A stretch of 62,289 nucleotides of DNA, counting the filler, from Sluysia triapertura (Eukaryota): the NCBI GenBank assembly GCA_046118255.1. It is 5 parts of 5 records of this genome, joined end to end, with 100 filler letters (N's around TTAATTAATTAA, not from the genome) between each part and the next. Parts side by side here need not be neighbours in the genome. Positions count along the whole stretch, not along the records: positions 1 to 11,391 come from JBJNIA010185191.1; 4 more parts are not named here. One strand, 5' to 3'. Positions 511 to 43,400 of this stretch are shown in pieces. Made by a program: the position numbers and the translations under genes. Position 1 is the first letter of the stretch; each line of letters begins with the position of its first letter. Below the pieces are notes generated by a model. The model was given only the letters and a program-made list of their open reading frames with translations. It ran no database searches and was not told the DNA's origin.

Positions 511-3500
511 AATTAGTCGTTAATAAGTAAACATCCTTTAAATATTCAATTTGTTTTAAAAATAACTAAATCATAAATATTCTTTAAAGTTAAATAATTT
601 ACATTTTTTAATATTATTTTACTCTTTAATATTATTTTCTACAATTTAAACTAAATATTCTAAATATTATAAAATTCTTCTAAAACTACAATAATTCTTA
701 CAATGATCATATTTACAATTTAATATTTACACTTTATTTACAGTACCGACCCCGAAGGGAGTTTTACATTGAGATTTACAATTCAAAAAATGAAAATGAT
801 GTTTTCTAAACATCGTGTCACTTTCATATGCACAACAATCTATTGTATAGTCTGATGATAAAACCAAGGATAATAAATCATAGTTTAACTCATCGAATAA
901 TAAAAAACTATTAATAATTCTTAACACATTAAAAATCTTTTAAATAAAAAAACTAATATACATTAGAAATATTAAAAGAATAATCAGTAACTTTAAAATA
1001 AACTTTTACAAGTTCTGAGATCAAGAAATAAACAACTCAAAATGTTCTTAAATCAAAACAGAATGTAAAGAGCATGAAACTTACCACACATTTATTCCGT
1101 CAATTAAATTAGTTTATAATTAGAGGTTCTGAAGTATTTTCTGAAGGTAGAGATGGAAATGTAGATTTTCAGTAATTTATACAAAAATAAACTAGACATT
1201 AAAATATTAAGTTTAATATTTAATAGTAAAAATATAAATATGTATGATGTATAATGATAGGGTCTACACGTAGTCGAATATGTTTTAATGGATATATTTT
1301 TATTTGCAACTTACTCCACTAGAATTTTAAAGTGTCATTTAAAGTAGATATTACTATATTTGAAACCACATATTCTAAGTATACCTATGTTTAAAATCAA
1401 TTTCAAGAAGTAAAAAATCTCGTTTTATACAATATTTTCCACTGGTATTATATAATGGGCCAATAATTTTTTTTGAATTAATTTCTATTTTATGGCCAAT
1501 TTCTTTCGACAGTTAAAATCATATAAATGATTTTAATATACGTATTTTCATAATAATATTGCCGACTTCTTTTATATATTAGTTAATTTTTTGCCGTAAT
1601 AGTGATTTTGTCAATTTATTCATTTAATGCTTATATGTTGGTTTGTAATAGTTTTATTTTCATTTTTATTTTAATAAAATTGTATGGTACTTTCGTTTAA
1701 TTTATAGCCTCTTCTACTTGCTAATTAAGCATGATGAATACTATCCATTTTATCTTCCTTTTTTTAATTTCTTTCAAGTTTAATGCATTTTTGATTTCAT
1801 ACATCTAAGCTGTCTCTCTGAAGCTATCGAGAATATTAAGATTCTTTAAGTTTCTTTAATCATTTACATATTTTAAATTATAAAAATTTAATTTTTCTTT
1901 AAATTATAAATTATTTTAAGATAAATTATTTTATTTTAAAATTTATTTATCACATGTATTGATCATAGATATTAATAATTTTATTACGCATTATCTTTCA
2001 ATATTTCAGATATCCTACGCAAATGTTAGTTTTTTAAAAATTATATGTAACATTTCCTTGTTGAAAATTTCTGATAAAATCAGGATGAGCATTTTATACT
2101 ATTATATTATACTATTATATACTATTATGAGTTCGTTTGAAAAGTTCATGTGTTCCAAATACATAATTTTATGTTTATGACATAAATGAATTATTAAAGT
2201 CAAATTAGAATTGGAAATCAATGAATATAAAGTATTTACGATTATAATACATTTACAAGAATACAAAAATCAATTTTTTACAATTCTTTATCTCTTTTCA
2301 TTTCATTTCTAGTTGATTTCTTTGGATTCAATTCAATTTATACGTTGCATTTCAACTCAATTTATCTCATTCACGATTTTCATAATAAATCTTAGTACAA
2401 AATAATATACAGTACCCTAATAACCTTGCAGTTTATAGTTATTATTAAAGTGCTGGTAGCCATGTTCAAATTAGTTTTTAGAACGAAATAAATCAATTTG
2501 AATAAATGTAAAATAGACACTAAGGTAATGAATGCATTTCAATGAAATACGTCCAGTGGTAGCCCAAACCATTACCAATAATTTTATTGTATCTGAAACA
2601 TCAAATAACATTCAATATTCATTATTACATAATACATATTTCGCCATCCCAAATCTTTCACTCACCTGCAAAACATTAATACGTTTTATTTTACAAGTAA
2701 AATAATTTGTAAAACATTGTTTAACTTACTTTATTTAAATTACATTTCCTATATTCGGTAATACAAATGTAGCCAATAGTATATCATTTGTTAATATAAT
2801 AATAGCGAAAGAAACTATTCTTGGATATTTTTACATGTCTGTTATAATATGTACTGATGTTAGATTATTCATGTCAATTATTTTTATTAATGCTTTACAA
2901 CAATTATTATCAAACGAATCCCGATATAAATTGGTAGTATTAAGCTTTCTAAATCATACATGATGAACAATGAATTAAAAGACATTATTGCAAGGCAAAC
3001 AATATATTACAAGAAAACAATTACAAAAAATATTCCAAGTTATTTTTTAGATTTAGCGTTCTCTGTGTTATACCATTCATGCTTACGTTGTTTTTTATTA
3101 ATTTTTTCGGTTCAATTATCCCAATAAATTGCAATTCATTGGTTTCGCTAGGTTTAAACCGGCATTAAATTTAATTCAAAATTTTAAATGAGGAAAAATT
3201 AAACAAAATTATGTAAATATTAAAAAATTATGAAAATTTGTATATTGATGTTAGTAAAAATCTATAAAATTGCATTAAATTAGTAAATATTAAAATTATA
3301 AAATTGTATATATTAGTATTATTTTAATTTGTAGATATCTCAAAAAACTATAAATCATTATCATTAAATACAACAATTATTTAGTTTTAATAACTTAGAA
3401 AAATAATAAAAAAATAAAGATTTTGGAATGCAATTTATTAGAACTGATTTGGAGAACCAAATTATATTAATTGGATCGACTGTCAAATTTGGAAAACAAT

Positions 3501-4135
3501 ATTTCATCGAATTATTTATCGTCAGAATTTAGTAAAATAATAATTATTAAGTTAAGCTTTAATAAATTTAGCTTCAAAGTCAGACTTAAATTCATTTAAC
3601 CTTTGCAACCCAAGTATTAAGCCTGGGTTAAAATCTGAACTAAATTTCATATTTAACAAACAGAAATCATTTCTCTTGTTTCATTTGTTATTATTATTAT
3701 TATTATTATTATATTTGTTTATTGTCTTTATTGTTAGTTCGTTAATTGTTATAATAGAAAAATATAAAATAAAGTAAAAAATTTTTTTGTTGTTAATTGA
3801 ATTATACGATTTTAATAAAGAAATATTTAGAATTAAATTGTTGTTAATTAGAATTACGATAGAATTACACGATTTTCGACATATTTAGAAGTACATATAA
3901 TTTAATAAATTATTGACTGATTATTTAATCAAGACGAAGAATTAAATAAATTTAATTTAATATCAAAAGACCCTGTTATTAAATAATTTCATTTGCAAGA
4001 GTAAGCCAACTTTTTTCGTAGTTATTTTCTGTGGATACGTCTACTTTATGTTATAAACCGTATACCGCAGACGAACCCGAATTAAAAAAAATTAAATTGT
4101 TAGGTTAAAAAAACAAGAAAAAATCTAGCAATTTT

Positions 4136-4153
4136 TGGCACCCGAATTGAGAC
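4136..4153 (+). promoter_or_regulatory. Primer-binding site, tRNA-Lys(UUU)-like
   Basis: TGGCACCCGAATTGAGAC matches 14/18 to the canonical Lys3 PBS TGGCGCCCGAACAGGGAC. It lies 5 nt after a CA (4129-4130, putative LTR end) and about 300 nt before gag. Confidence 0.7.
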
Positions 4154-4430
4154 GATTTGACATTAAAAGATTAAGGTAAGTTTTAAAGCATTTAAGTAGT
4201 TGAACTATTTTTATTGTTGGATTTTTGTAAATTTAACTACACTTCGTTGTAAGGATTGATATAATTGATAAAGAAAATAGGAGTGGACTACGTAGGGTTA
4301 ATTCATTAGAAAATATTAAAAGTAAAACTAGGAAAACTAAGCCAAATAAGAAAAATATGAAGAAACTTTATGAGATTTAAGAAAATGTATACAAAATATT
4401 TCAGTAAACATTACACACGCAGCTATTTTC

Positions 4431-4860
4431 CAGGATATGCGTAAGTTTAATGGAAATGAAGAAGAATTATGCGATTTTCTTTTCGAATATGACAGTGTTG
4501 CAGAAGCCAACGGTTGGTCAGAAATAGATAAGATTAAGAGGTTTCAGAATTACTTAACTGGAGTCGAAATTCAGACACATAAAGAGATTGAATAAGAGAA
4601 AAAACAAGAAATTGCTTGGATGATATAGGTAAATATTAAGAAACAAAAAGATGACGGGACAGTTTATGAATTCGCTTGCGCGTTAAAATGTTTAGTAGTT
4701 AGAGCTAAGATATCTCATGTTAAGAAAGAGCCAATATTAATAGACAAATTTAAAAATGGTTTAAGACCTGAATTACAAGTATTTGTAAGTTTGATAGATA
4801 ATCAGCCGTTCAAAGAAGTAGTAAAGAAATTAAGGGATATTGAAAGATCTCAGAAAGAAA
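4431..4860 (+). pseudogene. gag: gag capsid domain (retrotransposon gag), disrupted
   Basis: Manual translation: MRKFNGNEEELCDFLFEYDSVAEANGWSEIDKIKRFQNYLTG...KQKDDGTVYEFACALKCLVVRA...LIDKFKNGLRPELQ, with two in-frame stops and no zinc knuckle seen. Confidence 0.85.
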
Positions 4861-5650
4861 CTAAAGTCACAAAAAGGAAAAGGCAACATAAATTATATAG
4901 ATAACAAGGTTTGGTTGCTCCATTACTTCCACTAGAGGAAGGTGTATTTGGCAGATTAATGGGAGAAGTATTATACACTTATAAGTCTAAGAAAGTGGAA
5001 GCCCAAATGAGACCGGCAACCGAATGTACAAATGACTACCAATAATGTACGAAAAAATAGAAACTTATTTAGAACCTGTAACAAGGGTTATATTTCCTAC
5101 TGATAAAATTAAACTGAAAATAATGCACTGTTCAAATGTGATGGCTCGGAATCTAGGATAGATGAAAATTTATGGATTTCACTACCACAAAGAACTCAAG
5201 TTAAAGTACCGAAATTATTGGATTAACGGAACTAAAAGGAAAATTAAAATTCTTGGGTATTAAAACATAAGTATTCAGACATCTATACAAATGAAGATAT
5301 ACAAGCGGCATGGCAAGAGATACTGTTCCCTATAAAAGGATCAAAGGTATTAACGGATATAGTAGATAAGGCAACAGTAGAAAAAGACGGAAGGATAAAT
5401 TTTGAATTATTATTAGGCCCGGATCATTTTAAGAAATCCGCGCAAAATACACTAAAACAAATTTGGGGTAGTTTTCTGATTTTGAGTCAAGCCTCTTCAG
5501 GATTAATTGGTATCTACATTATAATTAAGGTGATAGCATTAATAATATCTCAAGTTTTCTCTGTAGTAGGAATTTATGAGATTTCAGGTTTTGCAGGAAA
5601 ATTAATAATAGGTTGTTTTCCATTTTTGGCAAAATATCTTCTACGTCATC
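4861..5650 (+). pseudogene. C-terminal half of a chuvirus-like/class III (gB-type) envelope glycoprotein, frameshifted
   Basis: Reconstructed peptide GVFGRLMGEVLYTYKSKKVEAQMRPATECTNxLPIMYEKIETYLEPVTRVI...CSNVM...WISLP...DIYTNEDIQAAWQEILFP...KQIWGSFLILSQASSGLIGIYIIIKVIALIISQVFSVVGIYEISGF. It parallels the chuvirus-type G pattern as I remember it (AGEVIHIIKC..ECY.ELPV..FL.P.T.IL; GIYT.EDL....IMFP; WGKFL.FG.ASAG.IGI..II). Confidence 0.72.
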
Positions 5651-5850
5651 ACGAAAATTCACAAATAAACGCATTAAGAAAAGAAATAACACGAACCGAA
5701 AATGAAAATGTGGTATTACAAACAATTCAAAATGATGAAAATGAAGACATTAAAGAATTAAAGGAAAATCTTAAAAGATCCCCAGCAGCACCAATACCAA
5801 ATGTAGTATATATGATAATATGTGCAATTAATAACTATAATAATTCTAAA

Positions 5851-6160
5851 AGGCCAATAACCAATGCCAAAATCAATGGAAGAACAATTTCGGCATTAAT
5901 AGATACAGGAGCAGTGGCATCCTTAATTAATGAAAATCAATTAACAAAAGAAGAACAAAGAAATCTTGGAAATCATTTTTCTCATTTATCAGGAGTTACT
6001 GGAGACGCTATTCACATCGTAGGAGTAATGAAAGCTTTATGCGAGATAGGGCTGAATAATGTTGAAGTAAAATTAAGAGTAAAATTAAAATTGGGAATGG
6101 ATATATTATCACAACTAAAAGGAGTAATACTGGATTTTGACAGTGTCAAACTAATGGATA
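5851..6160 (+). pseudogene. Retroviral-type aspartic protease (PR1), in frame with the glycoprotein TM region
   Basis: INGRTISALIDTGA (DTG at 5902-5910) and LGMDIL; the frame is open from 5248 to 6312. Confidence 0.9.
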
Positions 6161-6599
6161 TTTATTCAAAAAGAACTATTGACGACGACGACGTTTATGC
6201 CGATGAACCATTATGGTTGTTGAGTAGGACAGAGTATATAATGCTAGCAAAGACAAATAGCTCACTAACCGGTCGAATCATGTTCATAGCTTCAGAAATT
6301 AATCAAGAATAATTGGATTAGGTATCGCGGACCCAATCTGTAACAATTGCGAAGGAAAGATACCCGTTCGAATTATAAACGATACAGGAACCAAATTAGG
6401 AAGAATTGTTAATTATAAAATAAAGACACATATTAACACAATAAAATTACAACGCGATATACTAGAGGAGGATTACGGAGAAATTCAAATTAACAATAAA
6501 AATTTAACTAAGAGACAAGAGGAACAACTATACGAAATTATATATCGCTATCCAAGAGCAATTTCAAAGAACAAATATGATATCGGGGACTCCATAATC

Positions 6600-7270
6600 A
6601 TTAAACATGAAATACCATTAACAGAAGATAAGGTAATTCGGAGAAAACCTTATAGAATTCTTGTTTGCAATCAAAAGGAAATGCAAGATCAGATCGATAC
6701 TATGAAAAAGGCTGGAGTAATAATACCAAGCTTTTCTCCATTTTCATTACCGGCATTTCTAGTTAAAAAGAAGGACGGAACGATGCGATTTCAGAAACGA
6801 AATGTTGGACAAACTAGGAAATGCTACTTACTTTACAACTTCAGACTTACAAAGCGGATATTGGCAAATTGAGACAGCAGAGAAATATAAACACAAAACG
6901 GCATTTACATGTGGGAATGAGTTATATGAATGTGAAAAAATGCCATTTGGCTTAACTGGCGCACCATCAACTTTCCAACGTTGTATGAATTTTGTACTAT
7001 CAGGAATAAGAATGTCATGGTCTACATAGATGATATAATATTTTCAAAGGATTTTAAAACTCATTTAGATGATATGGATAATATCTTAAACAGGTTAGAA
7101 GTCACCAGACTCAAAATAAAGCCTACAAAATGTGTATGGGCAAAAGGAAAAGTCGAATTCTTGGGATACATAGTATCTAAGGATGGTATTAAACCTAATC
7201 CAAGAAACGTTGAGAAAGTAGTTAAATTCTTACAACCAGATAGCGTTAAAAAATTCAAAGTTTCTTAGGT
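6600..7270 (+). pseudogene. pol: Reverse transcriptase, frameshifted and internally deleted
   Basis: VKKKDGTMRF, DLQSGYWQI, KTAF, MPFGLTGAPSTFQRCM, YIDD (7023-7034), KC..VEFLGY; the CVDYR segment is missing. Confidence 0.95.
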
Positions 7271-7804
7271 TTAGCCAACTACTACAGAAGATTTGTCAAG
7301 AATTTTGCCAAAATTGCACAACCTCTTAGGAAATTAACAAAGAAAAATGTAGAATTTAAATGGACAGACGAACAGACCAAAGCGTTTAAGGAATTGAAAG
7401 AGCATCTCACTTCAGCACCAATACTAATCTTTCCTGATGTTAGTAAACCGTTTATACTAACTACAGACGCTAGCAATTATGCCATAGGCGCAATTCTAGG
7501 TCAAAAAGATAAAAATAATCGCGAAGCATATGCCAGTCGAAGACTTAATAAAGCAGAAATGAATTACTCAACTGTGGAAAGAGAATGTCTAGCGATTGTA
7601 TATGCATGCAAGTTGTTCAGACACTATTTGCTAGGACAGAAAGTTTACTTATATACTGATCACAAACCTTTAACGTATTTGTACAATCACCGAGACGAAG
7701 TTAGTAGACTTAACAGATGGTTTAATAAATTATCAGAATTTAATCTAGAAATTGTTTATAAACCTGGTAGTTTAAATATGGGACTGACTGTATGTCTAGA
7801 CTAA
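7271..7804 (+). pseudogene. pol: RT connection and RNase H domain
   Basis: PFILTTDASNYAIGAILGQ, YASRRL, NYSTVERECLAIV, YTDHKPL. Confidence 0.93.
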
Positions 7805-7844
7805 TAATGCGGACGATAAATGAAATATCAATTTAATACAGATC

Positions 7845-9060
7845 ATGTCAGTATCGGGAAAATTGCAGAATTCTGAAGAGATTATTAAACATCAGAGAGA
7901 AGATAAAGAAATTTCAACTATTTTAGAAGCATTACAAGCAAGTAGATTAGCCATTATGGATGGGATATTAAAATTTAAAAATAATAAAGATGAGTGGAAA
8001 ACTATCACTCCAGAATCATTAATTATACCAATATTGATACAATTCCATGATGGTCAACTGGGAGGCCATCTTTCAACAAGAAAGACTTTATCAAGAATTG
8101 GAAAACATGGAATTAGATATTAGAAAATGGTACAAGGATTGTTCAATATGCTATCGAAGAAAAAAATACCGGACAAAGGACAAAGGTACCGATGAAACCT
8201 ATGCCAGTACCATTGTCACTAATGGAATTTATGGCTATGGACATAATGGGTCCCCTTCCAGAGACTATTAGTGGAAACAAATATATAATTGTATTTGACG
8301 ACTATTTAACAAAATGGCCCGAAGCTTATCCAATGTCCAATCAAAAGGCTGAAACAGTAGCACAAATACTAGTGGAAAAGATAATATATAGATATGGAAC
8401 TCCTAGAAATTTGCTAACAGATCAAGGAACAAACTTTACTAGCTATGTAATCAAGTCAGTAGGTAAAATCTTTAATATTCTTAAAATTTATACACCTTAT
8501 CACCCGTAAACTGATAGCCGAGTGGAACTTTTTAACAAAACTCTTATCAGTATGATTAAGTCATACGTAAACGACAGACAAACTGATTGGGATTTGTACA
8601 TCGCACCATGTCTTTTTGCATATAGAAGTTCAGTACATCCGTCAACTAACTTTACCCCCTTTTATTTAATGTATGGAAGGCATTCTAATATGCCAGTGGA
8701 TTTGGAATGGGTTCCACCCATTTCACAGTATTTGGAAATTCCGGAATATGTAACTATAATGAGAGAACAATTGCAAGACGCTTGGAAACGAGCAGGTCTA
8801 CAAATTAAATATTCTCAAGAAATATATAAGGACACATACGACAAACAGCAAAAGAACATACATTTAAAATAGGAGACGAGGTATTAATAGACTATCCAGT
8901 AACTAAACCTGGTCAATCACCTAAGTTACATAGACCTTTTAAAGGACCTTATCTTATAACAAAAGTCACTGATACAAACGTGTTTGTTAAAGATCCTAAT
9001 AAAGTTAATTCGGAAACATTTGTAGTACACGTTAATAGATGTAAAATGGCACCAAAAGAG
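7845..9060 (+). pseudogene. pol: Integrase (HHCC, DDE core, GPY/F), frameshifted
   Basis: HDGQLGGHLS..CSIC; MDIMGPLP; DYLTKWPEAYP; TDQGTNFTS; TPYHP; FKIGDEVL...FKGPYLITKV (about 8863-8970). Confidence 0.93.
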
Positions 9061-9189
9061 GAATATAATTTAAGAAATAGAAAAGTACAAAAATCTAAAT
9101 TGAAAGTTCAACCAAGAAACAAAGATCAAGATAAACCGCCTTCAGTTCAATCATTGCGAAATAAACAAGTGGTATTTATGATGCGTTCC

Positions 9190-9540
9190 CATGGAAATGA
9201 CCTGGCCCGTATAATGCAAAACTTGCGGTTTAACGGGCGATGGGTTAGAGCAATTGTAGATACCGGTGCTACTATTACAGTGGTTCATAAAAATTTCTTA
9301 ACTACTTGGGAATCAGTATTCTTAAATAGACCAAGTTCAATAACATATAATGTTAATCAAACACCTATAAATATCAATGGAACGCTATTATGCTACATAG
9401 AAGTATTAGGACAGTATGTACAAACTCTAGTAAATGTTTGGGATAATAGCCCATACGAATTAATATTAGGTATGGATGTTATTAATAAATTAGAAGATAT
9501 GGTCATTCACAGCAAATACGGATTTATAAAAATACCACCA
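9190..9540 (+). CDS. Second retropepsin-like aspartic protease (PR2) downstream of integrase
   Basis: FNGRWVRAIVDTGATITVV (DTG at 9259-9267) and ELILGMDVI, in the same open frame as the integrase GPY/F tail (ORF 8980-9630). Confidence 0.85.
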
Positions 9541-9687
9541 GGATCAAATATGATCATTCCCCAACTAATAGTTCCACAAGTTGGTGATGAATTAACCTTA
9601 TATCGAATGCCTATGTCAAATCCACCATAACAAGTTCCAGACTTACCTTTATCTGATATTGTCGAATCTACACTTCATTTATCAGAT

Positions 9688-10446
9688 GTGTCTTGGGCAT
9701 CACCATCGACAATTACATCAGAGGAGAATTCGGATTCAGGAATCAGTTCAGATGTTCAGGATACCGTAATGATAATGGCCAATATAAGAAAAAGAAATTG
9801 TTCTGAGAAAATAATTTGTTGGATTTCTATTTTAATTATGATTTTTCTGTCACTTATGACTAATGTTATGGCAACAGAAACAGACGAGGAATACAAGAAT
9901 ATGAATATTGCTACAAATCATGGCAGGGAACAGAAAATAATTATCACCGATATATATAACCAATATTGGAAATTTGAGTTTATTTCCAAGAAAATGATTC
10001 TGCGACATAAATTTGAAATTTATTGTATCTATTTAAAGCCATTACTAGTGGGGACACCACATCATTTAAACGGTATCCCACATTGTCTGCATTATGCATA
10101 TAGACATATGCTAATAACTTTTTCTATAGACACTCCAAGAAATACACGAGATATTCGGAAATTTATCAAACAAATAGATCATTTGAAAAATGAGGAAACA
10201 ACGAAAATACAAACAATCTTCTCCAATTATGGTACAACTACTAAACAGATACGTAATTTAACTAAGTCAACTATAGGAGTTACCACGACACACTCTTATA
10301 ATCTTTTTATAATGTTACTAATTTTTACGTTACTATACATATTTTGGACTATATTCTATGTGTACCAAATAGGTAAGAAGATACGAGTTCCAGTAAATAA
10401 TAAAAATCTTATACCTTTTAAAGTGTGGAGGGCAATATATTTTTAA
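9688..10446 (+). CDS. Membrane protein ORF of unknown family at the env position
   Basis: Signal-like segment ICWISILIMIFLSLMTNVMA-TE, about 140-aa putative ectodomain, TM LFIMLLIFTLLYIFWTIFYVY. Same frame as PR2, separated only by one TAA (9628-9630). Confidence 0.6.
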   Translation: MSWASPSTITSEENSDSGISSDVQDTVMIMANIRKRNCSEKIICWISILIMIFLSLMTNVMATETDEEYKNMNIATNHGREQKIIITDIYNQYWKFEFISKKMILRHKFEIYCIYLKPLLVGTPHHLNGIPHCLHYAYRHMLITFSIDTPRNTRDIRKFIKQIDHLKNEETTKIQTIFSNYGTTTKQIRNLTKSTIGVTTTHSYNLFIMLLIFTLLYIFWTIFYVYQIGKKIRVPVNNKNLIPFKVWRAIYF

Positions 10447-11316
10447 TTTTATTTTTTATGTTATAATTTATGTTATAATTTTTTATTAATTTGACTTTAT
10501 TCCTTATTTCATAAATGTTTAACTTTAAAAAAACAATTTTAACTTTAAAAAAACAATTAAACAACTTTAATTTAAATTTTAACAATAAGGGCTTAAGGCC
10601 CGAAATGATTAAGAATGAACAAGTAATTAAAACATTAAAATAAACTGCAAGGTTTATTAACAATAAATTCAAATAAAAATATAATAGATATAAGGTTTCA
10701 AATAAGAACGAAATAAACAATAAACATTGAACAAATAATGATGGAATACCAACTACTTTGTTTTCTTCAGAAGTCTTTTTGAAATAATCTGCATTTGTCT
10801 TTTGTTGCCATTCTTTTTTGACCTTCCAATTAGAAGTATCGGTATTCTTTTCTACCACCCAAACGATATCTCCTTCTTTAAATTCTGTTTCTTCTATAGA
10901 ACAATCCACTAGAATATATCTTAGAATTGATTATTTGGCTTCAATTATTTCACTAAGATTAACCGTCAGCAAAAGTGATTCTTGATATTTGTTTATAATT
11001 CGTTCAAAACTATTAGTTTCGTGTTCTGTACTTTCCGATGAATCCGATTGATTGCATAAAAAATATTTATTTAAAAATTCAATAGTTAAATCACAAAATT
11101 CCATTTTACAAACGAATTGATGATAATCACAAGCTGTTTTTGAATGAACTTGCAAACATGTATCTCCAATACATACTTCAGTTACATCATGAGAACAAGG
11201 ATCATCCATAATCGCGTCACATGGATCTAGAAATACACCATTTGACCAAATGTAGACATCATCACAGTCACATTTAAATTTAGTCAAATCAATATATCCA
11301 GAATTTGAAAAATTAC
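10418..11316 (-). pseudogene. Antisense Cys-rich ORF of unknown family, one internal stop, 5' end cut by an insertion
   Basis: ORFs 10931-11287 and 10418-10909 share a frame and are separated by a single TAA; CDCDD..DPCD..DPCS..VCIGDTC..ACDY..VCKMEFC. The part below about 10700 is likely AT-rich run-through. Confidence 0.4.
10420..10435 (+). promoter_or_regulatory. Degenerate polypurine tract candidate
   Basis: AAAGTGTGGAGGGCAA follows a T-run at the end of the last ORF, the usual PPT position; it is not purely purine. Confidence 0.4.
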
Positions 11317-11391
11317 TTAACCTTTGTCAGTCAACCTGGGGGGTAATTTTACCCCCCATGGGAAGAAAAATGTGAATAACTTTAAAACTTT
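11317..11391 (+). mobile_element. piggyBac-like transposon terminus inserted at TTAA
   Basis: TTAA|CCTTTGTCAGTC followed by palindrome GGGGGGTAATTTTACCCCCC; interrupts the antisense ORF and is truncated by the gap. Confidence 0.4.
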
Positions 11392-11491
11392 NNNNNNNNN
11401 NNNNNNNNNNNNNNNNNNNNNNNNNNNNNNNNNNNTTAATTAATTAANNNNNNNNNNNNNNNNNNNNNNNNNNNNNNNNNNNNNNNNNNNN
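11392..11491. other. Artificial assembly linker
   Basis: Exactly 100 bp of N with central TTAATTAATTAA (stops in all six frames). Confidence 0.97.
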
Positions 11492-11654: not shown

Positions 11655-12027
11655 AAAAATATTGCGTAAAAGCAAGAATAGAATTCAAAATCATGACAAT
11701 AATTTACAAATGTTTACAAATGTCCTCAATATCTTTTAGAAATACAACAAAAATTGGAAAGCAAGATGAATATTTCATTGAGGTATGATAATCTATACAG
11801 AATCCGCAGTGATAGCAAGCTAGGTGATAGGTAGTATACTGTTTATGTTTCAAAAATATACAACCAGTTACCAGAGTATGTCAAAGTACTGGAAGATTAT
11901 GAAATATTTAAGAAAAAGGCAAAGTTGTTTCTGTTTCAGGAATATTATAGTGAATCATTTAATTTAAGCGCTTTTGAGTACTTACTTTGTAGTAGATATG
12001 AGTGTAATAAAGATTAATATATTATTA
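11655..12027 (+). mobile_element. 5'-truncated LINE 3' end (CR1/L2-like), copy 1
   Basis: Encodes KIYNQLPEYVKVLEDYEIFKKKAKLFL, typical of a LINE ORF2 C-terminus; homologous to copies at about 19.0 kb and 46.1 kb. Confidence 0.65.
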
Positions 12028-18999: not shown

Positions 19000-19335
19000 T
19001 AATAATAATAATATATTAATTTATATTGCCCTTACAGCTACTGCGTAAGTACTCAAAAGCGCTTAAGGTAAATCATTCACTATAATATTTCTGAAACAGA
19101 AAGAACTTTGCTCTTTCTTAAATATTTCATAATCTTTCAGTAATTTGACATTCTCTGGTAACTGGTTGTATATTTTTGAAACATAAACCATATATAACTT
19201 ATCACTGTGGATTCTTGTATAGATTATCTTCTTCAATGAAATATTCATCTTGGTTTCCAATTTTCGTATTATTTCTAAAACATATTATTTTAAATTATAT
19301 TCTGGCTTTTATTGGCAACCAATGTAATTCTTTAA
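19000..19335 (-). mobile_element. LINE 3' end, copy 2, with (ATT)n tail
   Basis: Reverse-complement match to 11655-12027; ORF 19063-19260 KIYNQLPENVKLLKDYEIFKK. Confidence 0.65.
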
Positions 19336-21171: not shown

Positions 21172-21682
21172 ATTTAATATTATTATTTATAATTTATTAT
21201 TTAGAACCTGAGTAGTTTAATGGGTGTATATAGTTTAAAGCACAAACTGCTTTGATCAATTTTGAAAAATTTAATAAAGTTTGCGTAAATAATGTAAAAA
21301 AAGACGATTTTATAAACTTTTATACAATTACATCAATAAAATCAGAATTATACTGATACATCTGAAAGGCAGTGAGATAATGTTGCACTATTGTTGAGCA
21401 ATCTATTTTGAGAGATCAAGATCTTGTGATTTTTAGATCGATGATCTTTTTTATTTATTAACTAATTGTCTGCATAACATCTGAATTGATTTTTTAGTCG
21501 AAGATCACAATACTGGCCTTTTGATGGATGACCATATCATTTTTCCTTTCTTAAATTAAGTCAATAATTTAAATAACTATTTGATCCATCTAAATCAATT
21601 TTCCCACATGATATTTCACCATTTATCAGCTTATAATTCGTTAACAAACTTATTAAAATTATAATAATTATTAAATTTCCAG

Positions 21683-22724
21683 GATTCTCCTCCATCAATA
21701 ACAATACCTCAGTACTCTGCAGCTGTTTCGAATATAGATACTAATTGTTTCCCAGTCATTTGGAATATCAAAACTCATCTTACATTCATGATGGCATGTC
21801 AATCTTGGAACAATAAAGGTCGAATAGTATTGGCTGGTAAAGAACTTTTTTTTCAAGAATTAGTGACAGACAGTACAAATTCAAAGATAAAAAACAGTGT
21901 ATTAAAATGGTTATCACCTAAAAATCCGAATCCAAATATTCATGATAGTTTATCGTTTAGATCACTAATGGATATGAAGTCGAAATTAAAACTCGGTGAT
22001 ATCGTTATTTACGATTCATACCAAGACCATGATACGGAAATACATAATACATTAAAACAAATGCTTTTGTCAGGACAATTATCAATGGTATTTAATAAAA
22101 ATATTTGGTTTTCATCGACACAAAAAAGTATTGAAAATGTTCGAGATTTATTATCCGAATTTGGTGTTGCTATTATTTATAAATTTATCAATTGGTCTAG
22201 TAGTACTACCTTGACTTTGGATTTAAAAACATTAGATGACAACTATATAGGTTGTCAAGGTTGTCTTCGTAAAGCACTAAAAAGTCATACTTATTTAATG
22301 GACAAAGGTATGGCAATAATTGAATCCTCACAGCAAATACCGATACATTTGATTATGAAAAGTAGTATTAAAAATGCTTTAATTTCAACATTAAAATTTT
22401 ATATTCCATACATTAAATATAATTGTCCTTGTAAAATAATTTCAATCGATGATATAAATGTCAGAAAATTTCTTTTTATTGTTGGAGAATTATTCAAATT
22501 GCCATTTTTAAGTGATTATGGATTAACATCGCCATATATTGAATCATTCCCGGGCAATCTTAAAAAGCTACTTTAGAAATCAAAGGTATTACAGATGATA
22601 CATTAAATTCAATTGGTTATTATTTAAAAAGCAGGTGATACTTTGAAATATCGTATTATTAAATCTAGTGGTACTTGGAAAATTAGTATCGGTTGTCATA
22701 CTGATGTTATACCATTGAACAGAG
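21683..22724 (+). pseudogene. TCAF/FAM115-like (M60-like peptidase family) gene exon with two compensating frameshifts
   Basis: AG|GAT acceptor and GT donor at 22725; CFPVIWN..KGRIVLAGKE..SVLKWL, YIESFPG, SIGYYLKAGD, WKISIGCHTD (compare TCAF VQIGCHTD). Frameshifts lie in A-runs at about 22562 and 22626. Confidence 0.7.
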
Positions 22725-37600: not shown

Positions 37601-39650
37601 ACTAACTTTACACCATCTAGAAATATCCAAATATCCACAAATATTTACTTTAAACTTAAAAAACTGAAAAAGTATATTTACAGACAACTCCAATAAACAG
37701 AGCAGAAACCAGAAACTAATAGATAAATGTGAAGGAATCCATCATACTTAATTACGGATCAAACGTAAACAAAAACTAATTAACTATATAAATAAGTACA
37801 TTGTTTCTAATTCAAAATATTTTAAAACATGAATTATAACAATAAGTTATTTAAGTATTTTAAAGTATTAGTATTCTCTAATTAAAAATATTATCAGTAT
37901 GAAACTTAATTATTGAAATAATTAATAATTTTATGATAATTTTAAGAAATATCTCTTATAGTTTTGAAATCTATAATTGAAAAGAAATATGACTTGCAAG
38001 ATAATTTGCGATTAAAGTCTTTAATCAAGGCATTTTAGAATAAATACAAAGAATGTAGTATCATATTGAAATGTATGGAAAAGTATAGAAGGTGCATAAT
38101 AAAAGAAAAAAATAACATATGTAATTTTGAGAATGACTTAAATTGAATAATTTTACATGTTTTTATGTCAGTTATTGTAATAAAATTGTAATTTGAGTTT
38201 TGAGCCACCTTATAATTTTTGATGATTATTTTAGTTTTTGGGCTTTCCAATTATTGAATGATAATATATTTCTTAAGGAATTATATAAGGAATTATATAA
38301 TTATAAGGAATTATAATTTTAATTTAAAATATTTATCCTCCCTTGAAGTATTAATCTATTAACTTGCGCAATGCACAATATAAACCCGATAGTATATTTA
38401 AAGCCAAACAATATAAAACCAAATAATATAATACAATCTCGTAATAAAGTAAACGTAAATAATATAATGAACCAAAACTACGTAAGATACTATAGTAATA
38501 AAATATAAACCCAAACCATAACAAACCATTATAAAATAAACTCCATCATTATAATAAAGGTAAATAATTCCCCATTTAATAACATTCACTAACCATTTCC
38601 AATTTACTAACATTTAATCGAAAATTAAAAACACTGCACAAAAAACATACGAGCACTTAAGACCGCTTGATATAGTGCGGATGTATAGCTAATGTTCTAA
38701 AAAATTCCGCTGCGACCTATAATTTAAGAATAATCTGTCTACTTACACGTGCTGCATTTCTGCACAAATTTTCAGTTTGTTCATTATGGCCACTTTTGAA
38801 TATATTATATGGTTTCGGAATACTAATATGATTTAGATATTTATTTAGAGTTAAAATATACTTTGATGTTTTAAATATACTTAAAATTATCGTTATCATA
38901 TTAGAGTTAAATGTCATCTTCTCCAAAAATTCTTTATTATGATAAAAAAATTGAAATAAATTAAATTTAAAATAAATATATTTATTTAATCTATTTAACA
39001 ACAAAATTAATACACAGGGCATAAATTTATTGAATATTTTAAAATGGCATATAACATGAAAACTAAAAGCTGTAAAGTTATTTAGAACATTGAACAAGTT
39101 GTTTGCATTTAAGGATATGTACGCCTTCATCTGCTGTGAATTATTTTATTTCCAAAACGTTCATAAGATTACTGTATTCAATATTATTTCTATGTTCAAT
39201 CAGATTTTCATTAACTAATAGATTATTGTTATGTAACATTTCTATTCATTTCTATTTATGATATTTATTATATTATCATAAATATTTATTATAACTCTAA
39301 TATTTAATGATGATTTTTATTAAAATTATATATTTATCTACTATTTGAATTATTATTAAATCAATTGTTAAATTAGTGTATTTTTAAATAATAATTTTGG
39401 AGTTGTTTGGTTATTTGATATTAAATTCAATGTTACTTCTGGTACTTTAAAACTAATGATTAAATCTTGGGTCATTTTTATTCGAAAATACATTATGTGA
39501 TAGTTAAAAATTTGATTAAAATTTAATTTGTGTTTTAATATGACTATGAAAATTATAGATACTTTTGTATTAGAATTTTCAATTAAATGAATAAAGACAT
39601 CAAAGGTTTTATTTAAAATTTTGAAACATAAATAATTTAAACTTAATTTT

Positions 39651-40490
39651 TTATTCTCTCTGCGGCATGAGACAGTATCCATATTCTGTCACCTGAAAAC
39701 AAAATATGGTTATAGTTATTATTAATTAAATAAAATAAAGTTATTACTTTAATATCTTTAATTTCATCACCCTTAGGATTATTAACGTTGTTACAACAAA
39801 ATTTAACATAAAGAGTATTACTTCCAGTTTTATGATCATAGACATTATCAGACTCAATTTCGTAAATACAGTTTTTATCATCATTTATATTATTACAAGA
39901 ATATTTGATAGTGAATTTACGTCTGAAGTTGCAACTTCTACATTTCTTGGCGATATGATAATCAAATTTAATACTTAAATTATAACATTGATGATGTATG
40001 ACAAATTTTGTATCCAGAACATGGTACTTGTGAGCATTGATAAAGTGATTATTGTTTTTCTGTTTGCGATCATCGGGCGTTACTTTTTTTATTCGAAGGT
40101 TGTCCGATTCTTGGTTTATTCTTATTATTTCTTCACCGGTTTGAGTTGGTTCTTCATCTAATTTCAAGGCATGATTTTTATAAAGCTGAAAAATATCATT
40201 TGAAGCTTCTATATGCCGAGGTTTGAAATTATCAAAAGAACGATCATTTGTCGTCAGTGTATTTTGGTTATAACTATCTCCAAAATTTTTGATTAAACTT
40301 TCACTAAAAACATGAATGTCGGAGAAATATTCCGTAACTTTACGCTGCTTCAAGAATCTGTTTTGTATCGTCTGTAATATTTCTTTGTCACTTCTTAAAT
40401 CTCTCGCCTTTACTTGCGACTTCAATAGTCGAACTTCAATTTGAGCAGTGTGTTTCTGTAAAGATAGTGGTGGACGAGTAACATCTTGGA
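39651..40490 (-). CDS. Unidentified spliced gene, last two exons (long exon ending at 39748; exon 39692-39651)
   Basis: A 260-aa ORF is unusual at this AT content. A phase-0 55-bp GT-AG intron (39747-39693) gives ...DIK|VTEYGYCLMPQRE-stop. Cys-rich C-terminal half; 5' end uncertain. Confidence 0.55.
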
Positions 40491-43400
40491 TTATGGCAAG
40501 GAGCCATTTTCAATTTCGACTCCTTGATTTAGTACAAGTTGGGACAAAAATGATATATGACTAACTCCAGATTTGTTTGAATACTCTATAACAGAATCGA
40601 CGTCAAAATCGAAGCCAAAGAATTCAATATTTGGCTAATTATTATTGGAGATAGAATTTAATTAAGTTTAGAATTCAATTTGAAAAAGAAAAGTTTTCGA
40701 ATTTTTTGGAAAGATACACTCATATGATTTTTATTTGAAGAGAATTAATAATCGTTAATTTGTTATTTTTAAGGACAACTTTAATCACTTTATAAATTCA
40801 ACTTTAATTAAATAAAAGATTTCGTATCATATGATTTTTATACTACACAAATTCAATTTTTAAAATTATATAATAAATATTAATTGAAATTACAATTAAT
40901 ATCACAAATCTTGATAATTGATTATTTAAAAATACAAATTTCATAACGGAATAATCGAATTATAAATTTATATTAAAAATCTATAACATTTAAATTCATT
41001 ATCTTAAATCTTTTCAAAAATTTTGTTGGATACAACATATTCAACGTCTTGATATTATTGACGTCCCTTCAATATTATTTTGTTGTATGTTAATCAACGA
41101 CATTATTAAATATCTCTTGAATTTTATTATAATCAACTACACTTTCAATTTATTGTCATAGATCCTTTAATATCTTTTGATTTTATTGTGGGCAATTATA
41201 CTATCAATAATTAACTGTGTAATATTGTTTGATTAAGTGTTTAATTTGTGATTAATAAAGTTACTTAAGAAGTTATTTGTTATAAAATTAATCGTTGTAA
41301 GAAGTTATACAAAATTAATTGTATAAATTACCTCTAGCATTAATATCTTTTCTTAACGCTGAAAATCTATGAACTGGCCTTTTAGTGAATAAGTCAAGTA
41401 TCATAGAGAACTCACTTTAAAATATACAAAAAGATCAACAATAAAATAACAAATAAAAGAAAATAACATAATATAGTTGGCAAAAAAGTCTTCAAGTATA
41501 CTAACTAGTAGATAATCATTAACCTATTATAACTATAGAGAAAAATTGTCCCATACATTTTAACCTTAACCTCTATATAACTATTGCAAATTATCACACT
41601 ACACTATCTTTATAGAATCTCATTTTAAAACGACAATTCGTTTGATTTCGATTTTAACTGATTACTATTCCTTATTAAATTTTGAATTTATACTAACTCT
41701 ATTAAAGCTTACTTTAAATTGATAATCTTAATGATAATGATTTTAATTTTACTCTGAAATGATGTTAGAATTAATTTGAAAATTTGAAAACTAAAATAAT
41801 TTGAAAAATATAATAATAATTTGAACATATAATCGGTTCATAAACATAAAGTTTAAGTTTCGAATATCCCAGCTTTGTAAATTATAATAAAATGAGTAAA
41901 GATAGTTAAGCATAAAGCTTATATAAATTTTTAAATAAAGCTACAATTAGTATTACATTTCGATCATTAGCTTCAAATTTATTGCAGTATATATTGAAGC
42001 GTTATAATGAAGATTAAAATGTGGAATATTTTACTTTTATTTTTTACAATATTGTCGATAAACAGTTTATTGGCATTCGGCGATTCTCTACGATACTTAA
42101 TGATAATTCTTCCATTCTTAAATTCCTTAGACCATAGCTTAATAATTACAGGGAGACATTCATATTATTATTTTGAATATTTCTTTTTTTCCTGCATCAT
42201 TGATACATGTAAATTATAATATTAACATGAAATATATTACTAATATGTAATTTTCCACAAAAAAGCAACACTTCCAGTAGTAATTTTTTATCAAGATTAT
42301 TGTAAATACAAAAGTGCCTAGCTTAAAAAATCAAGCATAAACCACATCCTACATATTATATACAGAAATCAGTAACTGTATCGAAATGTCAATTTCATGT
42401 TAATATTAATCACATCTATAAAATAACGTTAGAACAATTGGCATAAAATAATGATTGACATTGACATGAAATATTTAAAATAAATATTACGTTTATTATT
42501 TTTAATAATAAGAATTATTATTATTATTATAATGATTTATCATTATTAACTAATTATCATCTTATTCAATCTTTATTAAATGATGGGTTTGCTGTTTGCT
42601 TGTTTGTCTGTAGAATATGATAGAAAATTTACATATTTCTAAATATATTTATCTAACCATTTTATCAGTCGTAAATAATATATCATAAATATTAAGTATA
42701 TAGTAGTTAAAATTTGTGAAATTATGAAATTAAATTCTTTTTGTTAATTTTAGATTTATTTAACTTTTTGTTTATAATTACATATTATTCTGATGCAAAT
42801 GTGTTTGTGAAAATTTTGCTTTAAATTACTATTAAATTAATGGCGACTTACGTTGATATAAATAATCAGAAAAGAAAATATTTGTTTGTATACATAAAAA
42901 TACATCTAAATCAAATTACATATATAATTTATTTTTAATTTTTATAATTTAAAAAATTAATGAAATAATACAGAATACACGAAACGAAGAATATAACTTA
43001 TCACATTGAATTAGCAAGTAAAGAAATGAAAAACCTATAATTGGTTTAAAATAAAAATGAATAACGAATTTAACAAACACAACTACTAAATATGGTACTT
43101 CATTATAATATTAATTTATTAATATATTGTTGGGATTGGCTATATTATCATTTGTAGAACTTTAACTATAAGTAACATAATAGAATTTAACTAAAGTGAA
43201 CTATTATTACTGAATGAAATTGAAGAATATATTGGCCATAGTGTTATATTATCGGAAAATATTATATAAAAAAATAACTTATTCAAACTGAATTAAGAAT
43301 TTTGGGAGTAAAATATCACAATAGAATAATAATTCCGATTGAAATATTTTGATTAATAATCTTAGTTAATAATATTACTTTTATTGACAGTTTCTAAAAG

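Follow-up and report, generated by a model that had tools for sequence, protein, structure and literature searches.

Organization of the element

The window, i.e., the whole stretch of 62,289 nucleotides analyzed here, is animal DNA with a G+C content of about 19-33%, and contains a retroelement on the plus strand from about 4130 to 10440. In this element we detected, in order, remnants of a Gag capsid and of a glycoprotein (G), a protease, a reverse transcriptase (RT), RNase H, an integrase, a second protease and a second membrane protein. Sequence inspection revealed a primer-binding-site-like stretch at 4136..4153 (+), which begins with TGG and which we take to resemble a tRNA-Lys site, and a purine-rich stretch at 10420..10435 (+), a possible polypurine tract; no tRNA genes were found within the window. 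The element spans about 6.3 kb between its primer site and purine tract, or about 8.4 kb when its deleted part is counted. No LTR pair was found, with no repeat shared between 2501-4300 and 10301-11390, and the region 3' of the element (10450-11490) consists of other sequence and a gap.

Two minus-strand frames of 170 and 131 aa adjoin the end of the element (10418-11326), one of them cysteine-rich and one with a weak SH3-like match (E 0.12). Contigs of one public sequencing run that holds 44% of the sampled words (hereafter X1; it may be the window's own source and is thus not independent) cover 11070-11380 deeply, so that these frames probably belong to another repeat that displaced the 3' LTR.

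The pol domains include RT and RNase H at 6630..7780 (+; PF17917/PF17919, E 1e-37), which group in a tree with the G-fused polyproteins described below, followed by the integrase at 7870..9080 (+; PF00665, E 1.7e-9, and tblastn), both regions being frameshifted. The order protease-RT-RNase H-integrase in the window is that of Ty3/gypsy (Metaviridae), and we assign the element to this group on the pol order and the likeness of its RT/RNase H. A BEL/Pao origin was rejected, as the pol of the relatives best matches Ty3 among solved structures (relative P0012 to Ty3 Gag-Pol, E 5e-119). The stretch between protease and RT (6180-6420) is alignable to relatives and by its position may be a dUTPase-like remnant as in the planarian element Burro.

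The Gag capsid at 4434..4904 (+) is shortened and broken by stops, with 28% identity to residues 35-208 of relative P0010 (E 2.5e-16) and no Pfam match of its own. The alignment to P0010 then jumps from residue 208/209 to 921/922 at a deletion junction at 4902..4910 (+). About 710 codons are missing relative to P0010, comprising the zinc knuckle, a spacer, the internal signal and the N-terminal 58% of G, and none of the six frames of the window contains positions 1-351 of the 608 in the G profile of the relatives. An earlier note on this DNA had read the gag/G junction as a deletion of the nucleocapsid and the N-terminal half of G; the deletion (P0010 208 to 922) and its content (zinc knuckle, profile 1-351) hold, but its position moves from about 4860 to about 4904-4910, with a stop codon at 4902-4904.

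Among X1 contigs over 1500-11380, 15,935 lie on the element, of which 12,858 fall below 95% likeness, a sign of a large family (depth gives no copy number). The junction region is covered by 818 X1 contigs; among the 8 matches listed, none spans the junction and two depart from the window into other sequence, at 4862 and at 4904. Entry at 4910, preceded by other sequence, is seen in 8 contigs. The breaks near 5035 and 5146 and the stop at 9628-9630 are missing from several X1 contigs. Since other contigs differ at the junction and several lack these three breaks, the breaks look like decay of the copy in the window. This copy carries stops, frameshifts and one deletion, and frames that are intact under the inclusion rule in the accessible text of PMC13524379 occur in relatives only. 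We conclude that it is a decayed, internally deleted member of a multi-copy Ty3/gypsy family, and that it is dead: the nucleocapsid, the internal signal and the fusion-loop half of G are gone, and pol is frameshifted.

Glycoprotein remnant and its fusion to the protease

Positions 5248-6312 form one open frame of 354 aa, in which Pfam recognizes the Monjiviricetes fusion glycoprotein PF24664 at residues 10-165 (profile 476-631 of 653; E 1.2e-19, 70 bits, cut-off 27) and the retroviral protease PF00077 at residues 201-253 (E 6e-7). These two matches confirm the earlier reading of a single frame that runs from ectodomain through membrane anchor and linker into the protease. Overall, a chuvirus/herpes-gB-type (class III) glycoprotein is represented at 4905-5643 by its C-terminal 40%, from which the frame stays open into a Ty3/gypsy protease.

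The remaining part of the ectodomain occupies 4905..5490 (+). Its first segment, 4905-5039, on its own matches PF24664 weakly (profile 366-398, E 0.017) and scores 34 bits with a profile built from ten close relatives, which tracks G across frames 3 (4905-5039), 2 (5033-5146) and 1 (from 5155). Of the four frameshifts proposed earlier, those near 5035 and 5150 (5146-5155) are firm on this alignment. Those near 5220 and 5265 are plausible, because frame 1 holds three stops at 5224-5247 and a frame-3 match reaches profile position 482; around 5220-5265, no 30-aa stretch scored above 4 bits against the ten-relative profile. The open frame starts about eight codons (5248-5271) ahead of the aligned part.

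The transmembrane anchor of G is predicted at 5491..5547 (+) by hydropathy, with an insertion score of 0.6 on a crude membrane-insertion scale. A weaker, cysteine-containing hydrophobic helix at 5587..5643 (+) scores 6.3 and is predicted not to cross, as are its counterparts in 11 correctly anchored polyprotein relatives (5.2-8.1). Thus, of the long hydrophobic anchor noted before, the first helix scores as membrane-spanning and the second does not. In three stand-alone G proteins the second helix scores 2.7-4.6; given these values and the crude scale, the C-terminal helix of G may make a second crossing. A charged linker of varying length among relatives follows at 5644..5850 (+), and the distance from the anchor tryptophan to the first catalytic aspartate is 146 aa in the window and 131-391 in the relatives. 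Aspartic protease 1 lies at 5851..6120 (+), with its DTG at 5902-5910, identified by PF00077 (E 6e-7) and by alignment; it has six residues fewer than the relatives ahead of the second motif.

The fold class was assessed on a model of relative P0014, built with 40 relatives (mean pLDDT 80.5, pTM 0.54). All PDB matches listed for this model are herpesvirus glycoprotein B (best E 3.3e-13), with low TM-scores to post-fusion gB entries (0.28-0.35), and its best matches among viral models are chuvirus-type glycoproteins (E 9.6e-43). The G sequence profile matched gB weakly among solved structures (E 0.11-0.15), and the G remnant in the window aligns to the P0014 family at 99.6% probability. In the relatives the class III ectodomain is complete and its cysteines are invariant. 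Based on the modeled fold, we assign the G of this family to the class III, gB/chuvirus-type fusogens. The homology to viral glycoproteins that the earlier note wished to see checked is therefore present, both as PF24664 in the window and in the matches of the P0014 fold, and its view of a gypsy element with a chuvirus-like class III glycoprotein in gag-env-pol order is supported by Pfam, the P0014 fold and the P0010 alignment.

In-frame fusion in the relatives

A full HMMER search with 5248-5790 as query yielded 136 related proteins, available as protein sequences alone, i.e., free of DNA context. Among the best 18 of the 136, the tail beyond the anchor measures 90 residues or more in 12, each of which has a protease there in frame; the other six end too early. 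Two or more proteases occur in six of these 12 long-tailed close relatives, and the number of protease domains per relative ranges from 1 to 5. In the other 118 proteins, 16 extend at least 90 residues past the anchor and only 3 of these 16 have a protease; judged by these proteins, the majority of distant G homologues are not fused to a protease. G, protease, RT and RNase H share one frame in six proteins (P0003, P0012, P0013, P0093, P0138 and P0140), five of which reach the integrase. In 4 of the 12 close relatives the frame of G also includes an upstream Gag zinc knuckle, P0012 being one frame from zinc knuckle to integrase, and P0018 has a Retrotrans_gag match below the cut-off. In each of the 12 G N-termini examined, a hydrophobic helix directly precedes an [A/G]-[Y/F]-D-C start.

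Because all 12 close relatives have the in-frame protease and six proteins reach RT in frame, we regard the G-protease fusion as a family trait and not as chance, which counters an earlier reservation that the in-frame state of the window copy might be fortuitous. The expectation that gag, G, protease and RT form one frame in relatives is likewise borne out by P0012 and by the six proteins open from G to RNase H. The presence of Gag in this frame had been overlooked, as had the protease and membrane protein after the integrase.

The RT-RNase H tree, computed with a fast method, comprises 111 rows (the window and the 110 of 262 proteins that passed a length filter), with no named Burro or errantivirus rows and no BEL or copia rows. 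As to the placement of the RT that had been called for, the window falls within a 10-row group that holds all six G-polyproteins (SH-like 95), the six having been found via G; its branch is long (0.63). A word-index search of the G-protease region against longer proteins returned 0 of 2,713 candidates, and no related loci were confirmed among 133 and 182 pattern matches in metagenome contigs or among 4 matches in viral contigs.

Some relatives contain extra domains. P0003, P0005, P0140 and P0014 show C2H2 zinc-finger-like motifs between proteases, ankyrin repeats or, in P0014, a BCL-2-like domain before G, and P0140 has a third signal-like helix before RT (residue 2088). NCBI lists P0012 (HBK71150.1) with a metagenome-assembled genome of Flavobacteriaceae; since the protein is a complete retroelement polyprotein of animal type, its placement there suggests that the assembly is contaminated.

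Protease and membrane protein encoded beyond the integrase

Aspartic protease 2, with both motifs present, lies after the integrase at 9220..9500 (+; PF13975, E 2.2e-8), and a protease in this place also occurs in P0003 and P0140, two of the five full-length relatives. The tree of protease domains is poorly resolved (6 of 26 branches starred), and an origin of protease 2 within the element is not shown by it. In the frame of protease 2, behind one stop (9628-9630), a second membrane protein occupies 9631..10446 (+), with a signal-like helix at about 9811-9867, an ectodomain and an anchor at about 10291-10362. Four of the five full-length relatives (P0003, P0012, P0138 and P0140) end in the same layout of signal-like helix, ectodomain and anchor, and a C-x-x-L-x-P-x-T motif is found in the ectodomain of the terminal proteins of four of the five; P0093 ends in a signal-like helix with a different ectodomain. 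The motif is absent from the second membrane protein of the window, which has no significant sequence match to the terminal proteins of the relatives (best E 0.15), no Pfam match above cut-off and no usable Atlas match.

Other features of the window

Inverted repeat arms at 11728-11992 and 19038-19286 (about 260 bp, 87-91% alike, about 7 kb apart) are possibly a DNA transposon remnant. Exon-like stretches of one putative gene at 53480-54022 and 56429-56785 read, as we take it, like a ceramide-transfer (START-domain) gene, an identity for which Pfam and a homologue search gave no confirmation. Open frames of about 300 codons each at 21668-22576 (+) and 39643-40509 (-) had no Pfam match.

Relation to known elements

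The in-frame gag-env-pol layout, which the earlier note had taken to be undescribed, is already in print, and the window adds one decayed copy to a published group. According to the accessible part of PMC6431247, Burro/GYPSM1 of planarians has an env in frame between gag and pol that matches mononegavirus fusion glycoproteins, and is termed the first such case. The accessible part of PMC13524379 (Chary and Hayashi) describes GAG-ENV-POL elements with an HSV/gB-type ENV from Platyhelminthes (nine entries), Nematoda and Bryozoa; for nematode elements in which ENV lies ahead of POL it refers to Sacco et al. 2022. In arthropods, no clear gypsy capture was found, as far as the accessible text of PMC10084718 goes.

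Likeness to the gB-type errantiviruses, as given in the accessible part of PMC13524379, lies in the Ty3/gypsy pol, the gB-type ENV and the gag-env-pol order of the window element, and in an ectodomain set between a signal/TM helix and an anchor; the helix is seen in all 12 N-termini of relatives, the anchor in the window, where the signal is deleted. Four short motifs taken from the six Smed_errantivirus_1-6 ENV rows available from that paper occur in 8, 9, 11 and 7 of 14 polyprotein-type relatives versus 0, 2, 0 and 1 of 28 stand-alone G proteins, which supports kinship to the Platyhelminthes gB-type errantiviruses. From this ENV kinship, the source animal is likely a flatworm; a search of host genes aimed at the organism returned nothing. 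In contrast to the Smed errantiviruses, the window copy is broken and lacks the ENV part given in the supplement (PMC13524379, as accessible), so the link runs via the relatives. The accessible text of that paper does not state that gag, env and pol form one frame, and it names the protease once.

With Burro/GYPSM1 as given in the accessible part of PMC6431247, the family shares an env in frame between gag and pol (G-protease in the window, Gag-G in relatives), and some relatives have comparable cargo, i.e., the BCL-2-like domain before G in P0014 and ankyrin in P0140 (4,844 aa). However, Burro is described there as a giant with a frame of about 4,900 aa and BCL-2, BIR, MATH and ankyrin cargo, whereas the window element is compact, and none of these four domains has a Pfam match in the remaining part of the element. 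Membership of Burro proper was rejected on the compact size and this lack of cargo in the remaining part. Extra proteases or a second membrane protein are not mentioned for Burro in the accessible text of PMC6431247. In the literature searched, we found no description of either feature of our family (extra protease domains, including one after the integrase, and a second signal-anchor protein ending the polyprotein); subscription papers, figures and authors' online sequence files may cover the extra proteases. We consider these two features the modestly novel part of the present findings. Literature searches on signal peptidase with a gypsy env polyprotein and on gag-env-pro-pol found no paper.

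Anakin elements of mosquitoes (Dezordi et al. 2020) are said to be BEL/Pao elements with a glycoprotein of the PF24664 family. They would thus share the glycoprotein family with the window element and differ in pol, which is BEL/Pao in Anakin and Ty3 in our family. Nematode endogenous retroviruses (NERV; Sacco et al. 2022) reportedly have a continuous gag-env-pro-pol frame. These elements of nematode hosts have ENV before POL as in the window family, per the accessible part of PMC13524379.

Proposed polyprotein pathway and alternatives

We propose, as the likely reading, that intact members of the family encode Gag, gB-type fusogen, protease, RT, RNase H and integrase as a one-frame polyprotein predicted to thread the membrane, with Gag and Pol tethered on the cytosolic side until the proteases likely release them. 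Gag would be synthesized first, in the cytosol. The internal signal-like helix would then start translocation, with signal peptidase likely freeing the N-terminus of G, and the single G anchor would halt transfer, leaving G in the lumen and the protease and Pol on the cytosolic face. This topology is predicted from the N-terminal hydrophobic helix (12/12) together with the single scoring C-terminal anchor, and the mechanism suggested in the earlier note, in which Pol would be synthesized on the tail of the fusogen and set free by its protease, agrees with it. Trimers of G would crowd the tethered proteases, allowing them to dimerize at the budding membrane and to release Gag, RT and integrase, and a second signal after the integrase would export the second surface protein. 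The chain would be cut by signal peptidase and the element's own proteases, and enveloped particles would carry the element between host cells. The copy in the window is incapable of this cycle because the signal and the fusion-loop half are absent and pol is frameshifted.

The same polyprotein might instead use G within one cell or between touching cells, as an assembly anchor or for cell-cell fusion, with no free enveloped particle. Transmission and entry of gB-type elements are given as unknown in the accessible part of PMC13524379, which leaves room for such a role, but the complete class III ectodomain with invariant cysteines kept in the relatives, and the infection of the germline by env-bearing Drosophila elements as particles (PMC13524379, same part), argue against it, and we judge it unlikely. 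A further alternative keeps the single DNA frame and has the products made apart, with splicing or internal starts giving separate Gag, Env and Pol, and Pol untethered. Gag, Env and Pol in equal amounts would be unusual for LTR elements, a point in its favor; yet separate expression would not call for the frame of 2,600-4,800 codons across G that divergent relatives retain, which makes this reading quite improbable.

That the window shows a one-off rearrangement, in which an ordinary gypsy copy took up a chuvirus-derived fragment or foreign env that happened to be in frame, is hardly credible. The copy is rearranged at the gag/G junction, and arthropod chuvirus glycoprotein fossils often adjoin gypsy fragments (PMC10084718, accessible part), but the same fusion recurs in all 12 close relatives, G and RT lead to the same relatives, and X1 coverage is deep over both the G and pol regions. 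Chance nesting of G in a gypsy copy is refuted by the 12 in-frame fusions and the RT tree grouping. A stand-alone chuvirus glycoprotein fossil (a non-retroviral EVE) was also rejected, G being in frame with the protease in the window and in all 12 close relatives.

The membrane-threaded polyprotein that we favor could be taken further. It is possible, and in our view doubtful, that the retroelements of this family are built in flavivirus style and bear a pair of surface proteins, namely a gB-type fusogen and, after the integrase, a separate attachment protein. Duplicated proteases, one of them behind the integrase, would then each be tethered at a membrane-bound junction that they cut, their number growing with the length of the polyprotein.

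Implications

In Burro, transcripts rise upon piwi loss (accessible part of PMC8532177). How gB-type envelopes mediate entry is unexplained according to the accessible part of PMC13524379, and the extra proteases and the second surface protein provide concrete handles on this question, for which the intact relatives are the material, not the copy in the window. If capsid, fusogen and enzymes come from one membrane-spanning protein, Pol packaging and protein ratios in these elements must differ from those of retroviruses.
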